Position numbers and translations under genes: made by a program. This document shows, piece after piece, positions 5,057 through 20,175 of a stretch of 32,000 nt of DNA. Below the pieces are notes generated by a model, which saw only the letters and a list, made by a program, of their open reading frames with translations, was not told the DNA's origin and searched no databases. Position 1 is the first letter of the stretch, and every line of letters begins with the position of its first letter. Origin of the DNA: Candidatus Saccharimonadota bacterium (GTDB lineage Bacteria; Patescibacteriota; Gracilibacteria; UBA4473); the NCBI GenBank assembly GCA_020632335.1, contig JACKFV010000001.1, positions 450,001-482,000 on the forward strand, written 5' to 3'.

Positions 5057-5409
5057 AAGTGGTTACGACTGCAAAGAGGCAATAGTATTGCTCAGTGGTT
5101 TGCCAGGAGCCTGTTTTACAGTATCACTACGGTTGATGGGCGAGGGCTATGAAAGAGACCTCGACGTTCACTTTTTATGCTACTACACAACGGCGCGCTA
5201 TTACAAGACTTACAAAGCCGCATTACACTACCACCCACACCATAGAGCTGGTCCCCTGTATATGGCCGCCATGGATGCCCCATACTGCTCTATAAAAGAG
5301 GGAGAGGGTGGATGGAGTATATTTGTGTAACGTATGAAAGCTGTTTTATATTCTTGATATCTCTAAGCGGAATCGTACACTAGCATTTGTAATTATTAAC
5401 TGTAAAATA

Positions 5410-6351
5410 ATGTTGGCAAAAACACTCAGCATGGGAACGACTCTCACTGGTGGAGAGACCTCTACACTCTGTTATATCTACAAGAATGGGGATGGTCCTT
5501 CTACATTTATAAATGGTGGTACACATGGAGGAGAAATTACCTATCCTGTATTTCGTAAATTGGCTGCGCATTTGGAGAAGCATGAATTCAAGGGAAAGAT
5601 CACACTACTACCGGTATCCAACCCCATAGCGTGGTCGCAGCGGTTGTACTTCTCTACCGCTGGTAAGTTCTCTATGTACGATGGTAAAGACTGGAACTGG
5701 AGATACCCTGGCAACGCAGATGGTGTAGTGCAAGAACGATTTGCCCATATGGTATTCACCGAGGTTGTACAGCATGATTTTGTGATAGATCTGCACACTT
5801 CACGATGGAGTAAACCATTCCTCATTACTGGGAAGTCAGAACACCTTCCGTTAGCCAAAGCAAGTGGGATAGACTATACTTATGCTTCGTTAGACGCGCA
5901 TGATCTGAAAGGAACAAACATTATGCCATTGAGCTACGCCGCTGATATGCACTGTAAGAATGGTGGAGTGACACTTGAATGTGGCTCGCATGACAGTATG
6001 AATGACGCAGTGTTTGAATACTGCTACAAGGTAGTGTTGAATATGCTGGTTTTCCAGGGGCATTTTGATGACTATATTCCATTGAGTAATGGTATGTATT
6101 ACACGGGATATCATACCTATACTGCACCCGAAGCTGGCTTTGTGGAGTATCATCATGCCTTCTGGGATACCGTAAAAGCAGGTGAGGTGTTGTATACCCT
6201 CTACCCAGCTAATGACCTGAAACGAAAAGTCGAAATAATAGCTAAGGCTGACTGCCTGGTAGCTAAATACCAGCCTACGCACATAGCCCAGCCTGGAGAT
6301 CAAGTAGTAATGACCGTGCCGACAGACCAGCTACACCTGTACTCGCAGTAA
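5410..6351 (+). CDS. Succinylglutamate desuccinylase/aspartoacylase (AstE/AspA, M14-like) family zinc hydrolase
   Basis: 313-aa ORF in an AT-richer segment. Family hallmarks occur in the expected order: GGTHGGE (His/Glu zinc ligands), DWNWRYPG (variant of D-x-N-R-x-F-P-G), IDLHTS (third zinc His) and TLECG. Confidence 0.7.
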   Translation: MLAKTLSMGTTLTGGETSTLCYIYKNGDGPSTFINGGTHGGEITYPVFRKLAAHLEKHEFKGKITLLPVSNPIAWSQRLYFSTAGKFSMYDGKDWNWRYPGNADGVVQERFAHMVFTEVVQHDFVIDLHTSRWSKPFLITGKSEHLPLAKASGIDYTYASLDAHDLKGTNIMPLSYAADMHCKNGGVTLECGSHDSMNDAVFEYCYKVVLNMLVFQGHFDDYIPLSNGMYYTGYHTYTAPEAGFVEYHHAFWDTVKAGEVLYTLYPANDLKRKVEIIAKADCLVAKYQPTHIAQPGDQVVMTVPTDQLHLYSQ

Positions 6352-6363
6352 GAAAACACACGC

Positions 6364-6413
6364 AAAATAAATAACCGTAGAACCCAGGGAACTACGGTTA
6401 TTTGTTTTGTGTG
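6364..6413. terminator. Bidirectional rho-independent terminator between the convergent deacylase and ATP-grasp genes
   Basis: Perfect 8-bp stem AACCGTAG (6373-6380) / CTACGGTT (6392-6399) with an 11-nt loop. It is flanked by an A-rich run on the left (aaaataaat) and a T-rich run on the right (atttgttttgtgtg). Confidence 0.6.
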
Positions 6414-6433
6414 TCAGCATTAAAATCAGCTAG

Positions 6434-7972
6434 TTAGGCCAATACAGTACGGTATTGCTCCAACCCGGCATAGCGGTAAAATGTGCTGGCAAGAAGCTCA
6501 CCAAGCTCACTCAAATTATAACCATTGCCGCTCACAAAAAGCGGTGACTTGTTATGACTTGATAGTCCGACGTAGCCTGCGGGGAAACCATCACCAACAA
6601 GTTTGTAGTGCTGTCCAGGTCGCCCCCAGCCATAAGATCGTACCACTACACGAAGTTGATGTGGATCGTGAAAATCCCTCATGGTTGCAGGGATGAGTTG
6701 TCCTGCTTCCACAAACCAATACCCGTTAAGGTCTTTTGTGATCATGACTTTTTCGGTTTCGGTGAATACTGGCGGAAATAGTTTTAGGTATCCTCCAGGC
6801 GCCATAGCGAGTACATGCTCGTTGTAAACGCCTGGATCAGGGAATAGGCTTTCTTCTACACCCAAACCGGCAGCTAACGCCAGCATACTCATGCTGGGGA
6901 TGCCAGCGTCGTGACATGCGGTGTCGCATTGGTCATCTGGACCTTGGCCTCGAGCATTGATTTCGTTGTTGAGTCCAATGCTATTATCAGCTGATAATAT
7001 CCAGTCCAGGCCACACTTTCCGTAAAACTCTAATACTTTGGCGGCATAGGTTCCGATGGCGGTACAGCTGGTCACGAAGTGGGCGTACTGATTTTCTGTG
7101 AGCAGGCCACTACTGAGTTTGCCAGATTCCCAGTCGTTACCAGGACCAGCACCAGCAGGACAAAAACAGGATTTTAATCCAACAGGTTTGATAGAGGGAC
7201 CACCAGCACGGAAGTATGTCCCGTGAGGTGTTATCACCATACCACTGTTACTGGGCAAACCTTCCACAAATGGCATGATACGCAATGCTCCATGTCCTTT
7301 GTGAAATTCTACTGCTTCTGTGTAATTTTTTTCATTTTTAATGAATGAAATACTACTAGCACCGTCCGTGAATCTGGTGCCGCCAGCACTTTGTAGAATT
7401 TGGAGTACTAACCTCTTGCTTCCACAAAAAGTAACGGCTTCCTCGTAGGTCATGTCAATTCTGGAAGCATCGACATAGGCTTTTAACGGTATGCTGTAAT
7501 TCAGGCCCATACCAGCATAAAACATGGGTAGTGAAGCCTTATTTTCCAGGATTTTTTTCAACTGTTTTGGTGGAGACAAAACAGTAACATTTGGCATAAC
7601 TCGTAGTGTGTCTACAGCGTCATGCGCGGCGTAGTCTGGGATAAACAATACCTTTTTGCGGTCACGAAGTGCCTTACGACACAAGCTGGTGATAGCATCC
7701 CAGTAGGGTTGGTAGCTCCATACAGAGCCTTGCTGTGGACCGTCTGGGTATTCGGTCTCTAGTGCGAAGAGTTTGCTTGTCCAATCCCCTTCCAATGCTC
7801 CCGCACTGGCAGTGTAGTAATGTGTAAAAGGGGGTAATACCCCCTGGCACACCAAGTGTGGTAACGAGGTCGACGCCTTGTTTGCCATGCCAACGACATA
7901 GTCAAAGGTTCGCCATTTTTTCGCGATGGCCTCTTGTAATAATTTGTAAGAGGCCTCTAGTTTTGTTATCAT
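6434..7972 (-). CDS. ATP-grasp fold ligase-like protein (large, with unassigned N-terminal region)
   Basis: 512-aa ORF, AT-richer than the backbone. ATP-grasp-like segments occur in canonical order: ENKASLPMFYAGMGLNYSIP, KRLVLQILQSAGGTRF, ALRIMPFVEG and GKCGLDWILSADNSIGLNNEINARGQG (D...E-x-N-x-R type metal/ATP motif). Assignment is by eye only. Confidence 0.6.
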   Translation of the reverse strand: MITKLEASYKLLQEAIAKKWRTFDYVVGMANKASTSLPHLVCQGVLPPFTHYYTASAGALEGDWTSKLFALETEYPDGPQQGSVWSYQPYWDAITSLCRKALRDRKKVLFIPDYAAHDAVDTLRVMPNVTVLSPPKQLKKILENKASLPMFYAGMGLNYSIPLKAYVDASRIDMTYEEAVTFCGSKRLVLQILQSAGGTRFTDGASSISFIKNEKNYTEAVEFHKGHGALRIMPFVEGLPSNSGMVITPHGTYFRAGGPSIKPVGLKSCFCPAGAGPGNDWESGKLSSGLLTENQYAHFVTSCTAIGTYAAKVLEFYGKCGLDWILSADNSIGLNNEINARGQGPDDQCDTACHDAGIPSMSMLALAAGLGVEESLFPDPGVYNEHVLAMAPGGYLKLFPPVFTETEKVMITKDLNGYWFVEAGQLIPATMRDFHDPHQLRVVVRSYGWGRPGQHYKLVGDGFPAGYVGLSSHNKSPLFVSGNGYNLSELGELLASTFYRYAGLEQYRTVLA

Positions 7973-8025
7973 AGGAATTTAATTTTTGCCCGCCCCCGTG
8001 AAGGTTTGGGCGTGAAAAAAATAAT

Positions 8026-8181
8026 TTACTTTTGGTCGGTTGCGGGATAAACAGGTTTCTTTAGATCGTCGCCTTTTTGCGTCTCATCCGCACCGACGGT
8101 TGTTGCGATGGTACATTTATCATCGCTGAGTGGTTGCTGCTGCTGCGTATTTTTCTGGTCGCCACCTTGTTTTCCTTTCAT
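8026..8181 (-). CDS. Small ORF (51 aa) not in the supplied track: candidate substrate/precursor peptide for the downstream ATP-grasp enzyme
   Basis: Hand translation of the minus strand from ATG 8181 to TAA 8026 gives MKGKQGGDQKNTQQQQPLSDDKCTIATTVGADETQKGDDLKKPVYPATDQK. It is on the same strand as the ATP-grasp gene and 53 nt upstream of it. An AT-rich promoter-like region lies upstream (TTGAAA ... TTAAAA). No Shine-Dalgarno sequence was found, but other genes in this window also lack one. Confidence 0.35.
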   Translation of the reverse strand: MKGKQGGDQKNTQQQQPLSDDKCTIATTVGADETQKGDDLKKPVYPATDQK

Positions 8182-8398
8182 GGTAGAATTTTTTTAAAAA
8201 AAGATAATAATAGGTTTCAATGCTGATGACGTAAAACAACAAACCCACCTGCTGGCGGGAGTGGTAGAGCGATAGAATATTCTCTGATTCTACGCCATCA
8301 CACTACCCGCTGGAGCAGCCCAGCGAATACAGTGACAGCGTACAACGAGAAATTTCGATTGCATCTGATGAGACTTATAAATTGCTCTGGCAATATTG

Positions 8399-8422
8399 TC
8401 AAGCAAATTCCCACTTGCTTGA
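8399..8422. repeat. Perfect 8-bp inverted repeat TCAAGCAA-N8-TTGCTTGA upstream of the R-M gene
   Basis: Read directly from the sequence at 8399-8406 and 8415-8422, about 50 nt upstream of ATG 8472. It could be an operator or a hairpin; function unknown. Confidence 0.4.
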
Positions 8423-8471: not shown

Positions 8472-11400
8472 ATGCCCATAGCCGAGTACCTCCAGAGCGT
8501 GATAAGCATCTACGAGCAGGGCAATGGCACCGAGCACAGCTACCGTCCGGCGCTGCAACAGCTGCTGCATTCGCTCAGCACAGGCGTCACGGCGACTAAT
8601 GAACCTAAACGAGAGAAGTGCGGCGCGCCCGACTATATTCTCACGCGTGGGCAGATTCCTATCGGCTACATTGAGGCGAAGGATATCTTGCCCGGCATAC
8701 TGGATAAACGGGATACCCAGGCGCAGGTCCATAAGTATTTTGACGGGGAGCTGGGGTACAACTTCCTCCTGACGGACTACGTGGAGTTTCGCTTCTACCG
8801 TGGCGGGACGCTGGTGGAGACTGTGCGCATTGCTGACCGTTGGAATAACGCGCTCACTCCGCTGCCAGACCACTATGAGAAGCTGCGACTGCTGCTCGAG
8901 AGCTTCTTGCAATATCGTGGGCAGACGCTCACGTCGTCGGCGCAGCTGGCCGAGATGATGGCGGGGAAGGCCCGTATGATGCGCCAGGTGATCCGTGAAA
9001 TGTTGGCTGATGCGGACGACCATGGTGGCGAGATTGGCGGGCAGTTGCAGGCGTTTCGGAGGATCCTCATTCATGACCTCAGCGCTGAGGCCTTTGCCGA
9101 TATGTACGCGCAGACCATCACTTATGGGCTCTTTGCCGCGCGGTATGTGGACCCCACGCTGCCGACCTTTGACCGTTATGAGGCCGCACAGCTGCTGCCC
9201 AAAACCAACCCTTTTCTCCGGAATCTCTTTGGGCAGATAGGCGCGGTGAACTTCGACGAGCGACTCCGGTGGATTGTGGACGATCTCATCGAGGTCTTTA
9301 AGGCCTGTAACGTGGCGGAACTGCTGGCGGAGTACGGCGTTGCCAGCCAGCGCCATGACCCCATTGTGCACTTCTACGAGGACTTTCTGGCTTCTTATGA
9401 CCCCGCGCTGCGCAAGGCCAGGGGGGTATGGTACACGCCCCAGAGCGTAGTGGACTGGATTGTGCAGGCGGTAGATGCGGTGCTTGTACAGCACTTTGGC
9501 TTGCCTATGGGTCTCTCAGATACGAGTAAAATCACCGTGCAGTATGGTGACGGTCCTCCGCGAGACCTCCACAGCGTGCAGATCCTCGACCCGGCTACCG
9601 GAACGGGGACCTTCCTCGCGCGGGTAGTAGAGCAGGTGCACCGCCGCATAGGGGTGAGTATGCCAGCGCTGTGGCCGCAGTACGTCGCGCAGGATCTCTT
9701 GCCACGTTTGCATGGGTTTGAGCTCCTCATGGCCAGCTACGCTATGGCGCACTTGAAGATGGACATCGTACTGCGGGAGCTAGGCGCTCCGCCACCAGAA
9801 CGCGTGGGCATTTACCTGACCAATAGCTTGGAGGAATCGCACCCGGATACCGACAGTCTCTTTAGCCAGTGGCTGAGTGATGAGGGCAATGCCGCCAACC
9901 GCATTAAGCGGGAGACGCCCGTGATGTGCGTGCTCGGCAATCCGCCCTATAGTGGCATCAGTAGTAACAAGGGCGACTATATTACTCGTCTGATAGAAGA
10001 TTATAAGTATGTAAATGGGGTACACTTTGGCGAGAAGAAGCACTGGCTGGGAGATGATTATGTGAAATTTCTACGCCTAGCGGAGCACCTGGTGGAGAAA
10101 AACGGCGAAGGCGTGGTGGGCTACATCACCAACCACGGCTATCTGGATAACCCCACCTTCCGTGGTATGCGGTGGCACCTGCTGCAGACCTTTGACGACA
10201 TCTACGTGGTGGACCTGCACGGGAATAGCTTGAAGAAAGAGATGGCTCCTGATGGGTCCGCGGATCAGAACGTCTTTGACATCATGGCAGGGGTAGCGAT
10301 ATTCCTCGGGGTGAAGACGGGGAAGAAGCCTGCAGGAGCGCTGGCACGAGTGCACCACACGGAGCTCTATGGCAAGCGGCAGGAGAAGTACGCCGCACTG
10401 GAACAGATGACGCTACAGGAGGCTCCGTGGACGGAGATAGAGAACCGTGCGCCGTACTACTTCTTTGTGCCGAAGAACTATGATATGGGAGAGGAGTACA
10501 ACAAGGGTATGAGTGTGCGGGAGATATTCCCGGTGAATGGTGTGGGGGTTGTCACGGCCCGTGATTCTTTCTGCATTGATGGCGATAAAAAAGAGCTGCA
10601 GGACAGGATTATGGACTACTTAAATACCGACACTTCTGATAGTGAGGTCCGTAGAAAATATGGACTAAAGAATTCTAGTACTTTTAAACTGTCAATTTTC
10701 CGCGAACGAGCCAGACAAAATCATAACAATAACCTTTTTAAAAAAGTATCTTATAGACCGTTTGATAATCGCTGGATTTACTATACAAAGGATGTGGTGG
10801 AACGACCGGGGACAAAACACATGCGCCATATGCTAGCGGGGGAAAATGTGGGGTTGGCATTTAATAAACCAGCACAGGGGGGTCCTGATACATTTACTGA
10901 TATATTCGTATCAAATACTATTGTAGACCAGAGCATATATTCTGCTGTTAAGAGGTCACCACATTTAGCCCCCTCTACCTCTACCCCGAAGAAACACAGG
11001 CCACCATAGACGGCAGCCTCTTACGCACACCTAACCTCAGTGACGACGCCACAGAGCGCTTTTCTGCTGCCACTGGGCTGCGGTTTGTACCTGACCACCA
11101 GCACCCAGAAGCCGGCAATACGGATACCTTCACACCGCTGGACGTGCTGGACTACATCTACGCTGTGCTGCACAGCCCACGCTACCGAGAAACGTACCAG
11201 GAGTACCTCAAGATCGACTTCCCCCGTGTGCCCCTACCAGAGGGAGCGGAACAGTTCCGAGCCCTGGCTACACTCGGTGCTCAGCTGCGAGAGCTGCACC
11301 TGCTGCAGAGTCCGCTGGTGCACCAGTACCACATGACGCTAGAGGGCGGTACAGATATGACAGTCGGCAAAATAACGAAGAAGAGCTACCAGAGCGCTAC

Positions 11401-11614
11401 CGGGCGGGTGTACATTAATGATTCGGTGTACTTTACTGGGGTGACACAGACGGCATGGGAGTTCTTCATCGGTGGCTACCAGCCTGCACAGAAGTGGCTA
11501 AAGGACCGCACTGGCAGAGTACTTGGTCTCACCGACGCACAGCACTACATGCAGATGATTGCCGCACTTGAACATACCGCGCGAGTGATGCGGGAAATAG
11601 ATGAGGCATACTGA
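8472..11614 (+). pseudogene. Type IIG (fused endonuclease / N6-adenine methyltransferase / specificity) restriction-modification enzyme, interrupted by a frameshift near 10950
   Basis: N-terminal PD-(D/E)XK-like motif (GAPDYILTRGQIPIGYIEAKD). Methyltransferase motif I (ILDPATGTGTFLA) and motif IV (VLGNPPYSG). Conserved downstream blocks YRPFDNRWIYY, then, in a different frame, PLYLYPEE...DVLDYIYAVLHSPRYRETYQEYLKIDFPRVP. The first frame stops at 11007-11009. The second frame is open from 10952 to the stop at 11612-11614. Confidence 0.75.
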
Positions 11615-16763: not shown

Positions 16764-19945
<3,182 letters not shown>

Positions 19946-20055: not shown

Positions 20056-20175
20056 CCGTGTTGATGACTGTAGCAAGGAGGGTACACCCGGTCACATTCC
20101 GAACCCGGCAGTTAAGCTCCTTCGCGCCGATGGTACTTGGATCATTCCTGGGAGAGTAGGTCGTCGTCAACACGG
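20056..20175 (+). rRNA. rrf: 5S ribosomal RNA
   Basis: 120 nt. Helix I is ccgtgttgatgac / gtcgtcaacacgg. Conserved 5S blocks are cccggtcacattccgaacccggcagttaagc, gcgccgatggtac and gggagagtagg. It is followed by tgtttttttg. Confidence 0.9.

Follow-up and report, generated by a model that had tools for sequence, protein, structure and literature searches.

The stretch of DNA that we analysed, referred to here as the window, is 32,000 nucleotides long and includes a low-GC island in which exactly three ORFs are found: a hydrolase gene, a ligase gene and a small ORF (Table 1). Genes for transport or for a leader protease are absent from the island. The inverted repeat on which the hydrolase and ligase genes converge is probably a bidirectional terminator. 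No Shine-Dalgarno sequence precedes any of the three island genes, and the same is true of most other genes in the window. Judged from its sequence, the hydrolase is an AstE/AspA zinc amidohydrolase: it belongs to the succinylglutamate desuccinylase / aspartoacylase family (PF24827; cut-off 25 bits) and the HxxE and His zinc ligands are intact. Its relatives in the PDB are 2qj8, 3fmc and DoeB (6twm); the first of these aligns with it in the motifs GGTHGGE and DLHT.

Table 1. Features of the window, and arrangement of the hydrolase and ligase genes in the window and in homologous loci.
Feature	Position or locus	Strand	Remarks
Low-GC island	5100..8400		about 40-50% GC; flanks 58-65%
AstE/AspA-type zinc amidohydrolase, 313 aa	5410..6351	+	PF24827, E 6.9e-15; convergent with ligase
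Inverted repeat	6358..6414		28-nt arms, 86% complementary, 1-nt spacer; separates the converging ligase and hydrolase genes
Divergent ATP-grasp ligase (P0001), 512 aa	6434..7972	-	family profile and AlphaFold model
Small ORF (P0032), 51 aa	8026..8181	-	translated; exact sequence in NCBI nr; motif shared with L009
Sigma-70-like match TTTACG-17-TATTAT	8207..8235	-	consensus scan, 9/12 matches; ends 26 nt upstream of small-ORF ATG
Terminator-like hairpin CCCGCCAGCAGGTGGG, then T-rich run	8244-8259	-	shortly before the promoter-like site of the small ORF
Type IIG / Type ISP restriction-methyltransferase, two ORFs	8472-11009 and 11144-11614	+	Type_ISP_C positions 1-155 in the first, 193-341 in the second
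23S rRNA	16765-19945	+	3181 nt for a 2925-position model, about 250 nt extra
5S rRNA	20060-20172	+	after 23S rRNA
Convergent hydrolase and ligase	window, L001-4, L005-8, L009, L010, L011		
Co-directional hydrolase and ligase	L016, L017 (candidate division CPR3), L021		
Hydrolase overlapping ligase by 10 nt	L013/L014 (Candidatus Daviesbacteria)		

The island is directly adjoined by the restriction-methyltransferase gene; the Type_ISP_C model is divided over its two ORFs, so this gene has probably been frameshifted or interrupted. Further along the window, DnaK is encoded directly upstream of the 23S rRNA and no 16S gene is present, pointing to an unlinked rRNA arrangement.

Translation of the minus strand from the ATG at 8181 to the TAA at 8026 gives the hydrophilic peptide MKGKQGGDQKNTQQQQPLSDDKCTIATTVGADETQKGDDLKKPVYPATDQK. 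This reproduces the coordinates, the strand and the 51-aa length that a preliminary description had given for the small ORF, and every residue position that it had listed for the peptide was also correct. The ORF, which that description had noted as missing from its ORF track, is not unannotated: the identical 51-aa protein is already an NCBI nr entry (P0032, on a contig of 630,865 nt). The stop codon lies 53 nt upstream of the 512-aa ligase gene (7972..6434) on the same strand, and the peptide occurs only once in the window.

Taken alone, the small ORF is statistically unremarkable. Its length is within chance expectation: when the 499-nt intergenic region is shuffled, 39% of the products contain an ATG ORF of at least 51 codons. 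The residue composition that had been described as graspetide-like does not exceed chance either: Asp, Glu, Lys, Ser and Thr make up 45% of the peptide compared with 37 ± 6% in shuffles of the ORF's own nucleotides (P = 0.09). This richness is explained by the base composition of the coding strand (A 39%, T 12%); a strand that is A-rich and T-poor suppresses stop codons and produces Lys, Gln, Asp and Thr. The GC content by codon position is 0.60/0.37/0.46 in the small ORF and 0.54/0.44/0.45 and 0.52/0.39/0.46 in its two neighbours, the order being alike in all three.

The sigma-70-like match upstream of the small ORF is weak evidence for a promoter because ten such sites are present in the scanned region, where 5.3 ± 2.5 are expected. 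As for the terminator-like hairpin a little further upstream, no annotated gene of the minus strand would terminate there. A scan of the leader region with Rfam revealed no element, and a tRNA fragment that was suspected near 8260-8290 was found by neither ARAGORN nor Rfam. In the gap that separates the small ORF from the ligase gene the stem is not significant (z = -0.36), and we therefore dropped a reading of it as an attenuator.

It is comparison with another locus that lifts the small ORF above this background. When the peptide was searched with tblastn against all of the loci that we fetched, there was a single outstanding match, in the locus L009, immediately upstream of the ligase homologue P0003. 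The ORF at that position runs from an ATG at 77 to a TAA at 217, encodes the 46-aa peptide MKKLTDDKKTIAHTVGVGGSGHVGVKPADGKKNCSHIQPGGPGTGV and ends 10 nt before the start of P0003; the contig has a GC content of 38.5%, and the frame stays free of stops over 56 codons. It had been hidden because the start of P0003 was mis-called, so that the two overlap in different frames: the public gene call begins at L009:93, whereas the relatives of P0003 place the true start (MRELFFDGAP) at L009:228, making the first 45 residues of the called protein an N-terminal extension.

Residues 18-30 of the window peptide (LSDDKCTIATTVG) and residues 4-16 of the L009 peptide (LTDDKKTIAHTVG) are identical at 10 of 13 positions and share the pattern L-[ST]-D-D-K-x-T-I-A-x-T-V-G. 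The pairwise local score of 45 was reached in 19 of 20,000 composition-preserving shuffles of both peptides. A family-wise test was made on three frames of the 300 nt preceding each of seven homologous ligases, and none of its 1000 shuffles reached the maximum score of 46 (mean 24.7, sd 3.0; P < 0.001). At the nucleotide level the two motifs agree in 10/13 first, 10/13 second and 3/13 third codon positions, and seven of the ten conserved residues are specified by different synonymous codons. Such synonymous divergence at the third position is the pattern of a translated and constrained peptide and would be unexpected in a conserved RNA or DNA element.

The conserved part of the peptide is not the part to which attention had been drawn. 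D20, D21, K22, T24 and T28 are kept in L009, this being one homologue only, while outside the motif the two peptides are unrelated, C-termini included. The C-terminal 'core' stressed in the preliminary description (T34, D38, D39, K41, K42, T48 and D49) is absent from L009, and the segment KKPVYPATD, in which a loose resemblance to the microviridin core had been seen, has no counterpart there. The suggestion that conservation be sought upstream of homologous ligases was borne out in part: L009 provides an ORF of 46 aa in the expected position and with the motif, but in seven other loci (L001, L006, L012, L014, L015, L016 and L017), where 113-356 nt in front of the ligase can be read, nothing similar is found there or elsewhere in the fetched DNA, and the absence holds for L001-4, L005-8 and L013/14 as groups. 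L010, L011 and L021 were left out of this comparison as their sequences end too near the ligase gene; L010 and L011, whose ligases P0004 and P0005 are those most closely related to that of L009, stop 37 and 7 nt upstream of it. The small ORF is found upstream of the ligase in two contexts only, therefore, the window and L009.

Wider searches added nothing to this pair. Relatives of the small peptide were found neither among 5.8 billion called proteins nor in plasmid or phage records. The back-translated motif is GAYGAYAARNNNACNATHGCNNNNACNGTNGG, with Ser/Thr-flanked variants in addition, and a motif scan of viral contigs gave no match. Pfam, NCBIfam and PADLOC contain no family to which the small peptide belongs, and no precursor family fits either it or its L009 counterpart. 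With its syntenic and amino-acid-level conservation in a single comparison, the small ORF nevertheless has the sequence characteristics of a protein-coding gene, and we regard it as likely to be a real one. That two very distant loci link it to the ligase fits a functional partner and is suggestive of one. Together with its place in the ligase's low-GC island, the L009 relative makes it probable that the small ORF is a real gene linked to the ligase.

The ligase is a divergent protein. As a single sequence P0001 matches nothing in Pfam, NCBIfam or the PDB, and used alone as the query it retrieved no relative from genome or metagenome contigs; a 3-sequence alignment retrieved the Daviesbacteria locus only. 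A word-indexed search of 5.8 billion proteins with P0001 or with the family alignment returned the query itself and one unrelated protein that resembles carbamoyl-phosphate synthase. A HMMER scan of 1.84 billion cluster representatives was more productive and yielded 28 proteins at E ≤ 1e-3, four of them at E ≤ 1e-30, with the query counted. Plasmid records held no relatives of the ligase and viral contigs held none of P0003. The hosts of the family are candidate-phyla-radiation bacteria (Daviesbacteria, CPR3), and other members lie on low-GC metagenomic contigs.

Among 27 family members D323, E337, N339 and R341 are at least 90% conserved, the last three in an EINxRxQG motif, and the SxGG loop is also conserved in the alignment. 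PF02222 is matched by 10 of the 27 and PF02655 by nine. Against the PDB the family profile finds BesA, an L-propargylglycine-L-glutamate ligase (8yi6; E 4e-7, over 74 residues only), biotin carboxylases, PurK and LdmS (7r8p; identified from PMC9486568). A confident structural model was obtained with AlphaFold from the 27-sequence alignment (pLDDT 89.8, pTM 0.90), which is needed for the purpose, a single-sequence prediction having a pLDDT of 33. The best Foldseek matches to the model are biotin carboxylases, the L-amino-acid ligase of B. licheniformis (3vot, at rank 3), and PurD, PurT and PurK, with TM-scores of about 0.5-0.56 and E values of about 1e-13; across profile and model, biotin carboxylases score as well as BesA and 3vot do. 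The earlier identification of the downstream gene as ATP-grasp is thus upheld, by the family profile and the predicted structure only. Taken together, the catalytic residues, the profile and the confident model indicate that P0001 belongs to the ATP-grasp superfamily, and they place it in the amino-acid-ligase / carboxylase part of that superfamily and not with the graspetide ligases; the likeness to BesA, 3vot and biotin carboxylase is not one from which its substrate specificity can be read. The family has one peculiarity. Where ATP-grasp enzymes canonically have a nucleotide-binding Lys, as on the ...IKA..GGGG.G strand of biotin carboxylase, every member has a Gln (LVxQ...SxGG; Q191 in the window protein), while the Asp, the E-x-N and the Arg are kept.

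We recovered 12 distinct genomic contexts of ligase family members, the window included, and an AstE/AspA-type gene adjoins the ligase in 10 of them. The pair is kept across very distant genomes, and the hydrolases are the better conserved of the two partners (38-53% identity to the window protein compared with 24-33% for the ligases). The presence of the hydrolase beside the ligase in most contexts identifies these two genes as the conserved functional unit. We found nothing relevant in the literature on the pairing of an ATP-grasp enzyme with an AstE/aspartoacylase protein. Other neighbours recur loosely in the homologous loci: M20 peptidases, an aminotransferase, M16 and S51 peptidases and a DDAH-like gene. 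In a distant ATP-grasp subfamily (L019/L020) the adjoining gene belongs to the inositol-monophosphatase family and not to the AstE/AspA hydrolases, and in P0019 the two are fused. Upstream of the ligase homologue P0002, between positions 1110 and 1298 of L001, a promoter-like TTGACA...TATAAA is followed about 150 nt on by a strong terminator-like hairpin, CCCCGCCCAGGCGGGG, and a T run; with no convincing ORF in between, this segment may specify a small RNA or a leader transcript.

All of the homologous loci have a GC content of 30-44%, and that of the island is below that of its flanks. These observations suggest that the island was acquired horizontally, as a three-gene cassette, by a high-GC genome.

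Our proposal for the small ORF is a tentative one, on which we would place somewhat less than even confidence: the peptide, made ribosomally, is an optional partner that the ligase uses as acceptor or substrate, the DDK/T motif is a site of recognition or modification, and the hydrolase trims or reverses the bond that is made. The small ORF would be a translated gene that travels with a horizontally acquired module of ligase and AstE/AspA hydrolase, and its product would most likely act as the acceptor. The ligase would first convert a carboxylate to its acyl phosphate. An amide (or ester) bond would then be made at the conserved Asp-Asp-Lys / Thr motif, with the result that either an amino acid is attached or a side-chain link is closed. 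Enzymes of the AstE/AspA family cleave N-acyl-Asp/Glu amides, and the partner hydrolase would trim or reverse the bond made by the ligase. The variable N- and C-terminal parts of the peptide would be those that the ligase does not recognise. A substrate role of this kind is plausible. Since the small ORF is absent from most members of the family, the core activity of the ligase-hydrolase pair must be one that does not depend on a peptide gene directly in front of the ligase. A bolder version of the proposal, which we consider unlikely, is that the three genes represent an undescribed peptide-modification system in which an enzyme of the amino-acid-ligase/carboxylase branch writes an amide or ester on DDK-x-T-I-A-x-T, the hydrolase matures or erases it and the cassette moves between phyla.

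Several considerations count against a substrate role for the peptide. It has one relative only and most homologous loci have no such ORF, the ligase being accompanied by the hydrolase in 10 of 12 contexts and by the small ORF in two. The nearest solved relatives of the ligase by profile and model (BesA, LdmS, 3vot and the biotin carboxylases) are amino-acid ligases and carboxylases that act on small molecules, and the genes that flank it elsewhere (M20, aminotransferase, S51, DDAH-like) point to amino-acid or dipeptide metabolism. The same facts favour an alternative that we see as possible and only a little less likely, in which the ligase makes, out of free substrates, a dipeptide or an N-acyl-Asp/Glu-type amide that the hydrolase cleaves, and the small ORF is real without being a substrate. 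Its product could then be a small protein with a regulatory or accessory function, or it could be translated as a leader by which expression of the ligase is tuned, and the tight gap between the two genes (10 nt in L009, 53 nt in the window) would allow coupled expression. Where AstE/AspA relatives have a known function, as in the case of DoeB (6twm) and of succinylglutamate desuccinylase (8ein), their substrates are small N-acyl amino acids, and the association of the distant subfamily with an inositol-monophosphatase-like gene, fused or adjacent, also counts for this alternative. What this alternative explains less easily is an Asp/Lys/Thr-rich motif of 13 residues in the same position at two distant loci, for which a direct interaction with the ligase is the easier explanation; in addition, the hairpin that separates the two genes is not significant, so that no attenuator is evident.

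It is unlikely, in our estimation, that the small ORF is no gene and arose by chance where the ligase gene has a T-poor 5' leader, the L009 match being a coincidence. An ORF of this length is readily found in shuffled sequence, a coding strand with 12% T suppresses stops and yields Lys/Gln/Asp/Thr-rich translations, there is no Shine-Dalgarno sequence, and homologues are missing from the called proteins and from most homologous loci. However, other genes in the window lack a Shine-Dalgarno sequence too, and chance does not readily account for a match that was reached in no family-wise and very few pairwise shuffles, for conservation at the amino acid level with third codon positions saturated, or for a frame that stays open for 56 codons in L009 in a contig of that GC content.

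That the peptide is a graspetide in the strict sense, a leader-plus-core precursor on which the ligase installs microviridin-like omega-ester/omega-amide macrocycles between Thr/Ser, Lys and Asp/Glu, is very improbable: the small peptide does hold these residues, the conserved DDK-x-T-x-x-x-T offers both donors and acceptors and the ATP-grasp gene is immediately downstream, but P0001 is hit by none of the microviridin or graspetide ligase models of NCBIfam and Pfam, MdnC, CdnC, PsnB and RimK are absent from its profile-PDB matches at E ≤ 1 and from the Foldseek top 50, the C-terminal Thr/Asp/Lys pattern is not kept in L009, no GNAT, transporter/peptidase or O-methyltransferase gene is present, the peptide fits no precursor family, and the published graspetide census does not mention an association with AstE/AspA.

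If the peptide is the ligase's substrate, as we tentatively prefer, the locus would add an enzyme lineage and, with the AstE/AspA hydrolase, an accessory enzyme that are both new to the ribosomal peptides modified by ATP-grasp enzymes, and a motif based on two sequences would be available for mining. Even if it is not, the analysis defines a very rare and uncharacterised ATP-grasp family that is almost always paired with an AstE/AspA amidohydrolase. What we describe is a possible new variant of the ATP-grasp peptide systems, known from two loci; beneath it lies a solid ligase-hydrolase gene pair that had not been characterised before.

The island invites comparison with the graspetide systems (microviridin MdnA with MdnB/MdnC, plesiocin, thuringinin), in view of the graspetide-like composition that the preliminary description had seen in the peptide. 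Like them the island has a small peptide gene immediately upstream of an ATP-grasp ligase gene, and Thr, Asp and Lys occur in the conserved motif of the window peptide. The likeness does not extend to membership. From its profile and model the ligase lies outside the MdnB/MdnC, RimK-related clade and on another ATP-grasp branch, being a protein of about 500 aa that resembles L-amino-acid ligases and biotin carboxylases rather than RimK or MdnC. There is no recognisable leader/core family, the usual accessory genes (GNAT, ABC transporter, methyltransferase) are missing, and the constant partner is an AstE/AspA hydrolase. Nor is a precursor gene regularly associated with the ligase family, the window and L009 being the only instances and most relatives having no upstream peptide gene.

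The L-amino-acid ligases BesA (8yi6), LdmS (7r8p/7r8q) and Lal of B. licheniformis (3vot) provide the best profile and structural matches to the window ligase, with which they have a three-domain ATP-grasp architecture in common. They are only about 12-16% identical to it in sequence, with TM-scores of about 0.5-0.55, and in the window family the Lys of the canonical nucleotide-binding strand is replaced by Gln. They join free amino acids and have neither an associated peptide gene nor an AstE/AspA partner. That an ATP-grasp ligase outside the graspetides can join a small molecule to a ribosomal peptide has a precedent in PGM1 of pheganomycin biosynthesis (PMC8939145). The comparison with PGM1/PGM2 is one of function and not of sequence, and the pheganomycin cluster has many tailoring genes where the window island has only the hydrolase.

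The partner gene, for its part, is from its PF24827 match and its HxxE and His zinc-binding motifs a clear member of the AstE/AspA family (succinylglutamate desuccinylase, aspartoacylase, DoeB). The known members of that family function in the catabolism of arginine, N-acetylaspartate or ectoine and are not paired with this family of ATP-grasp enzymes. In the LysW/LysX/LysK system, a small acidic protein of ~50 aa is the carrier, an ATP-grasp ligase links the substrate to one of the carrier's carboxylates through an amide bond and a metal-dependent amidohydrolase releases the product. LysW has a zinc finger and a conserved C-terminal Glu, LysX is a RimK-type ligase, as is RimK itself, and LysK is an M20 enzyme. 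By contrast, the two peptides described here lack a conserved C-terminus, the partner hydrolase is of the AstE/AspA type and pathway enzymes are absent, but by analogy the three-part logic of the window genes would be like that of LysW, LysX and LysK, and of RimK with ribosomal protein S6.
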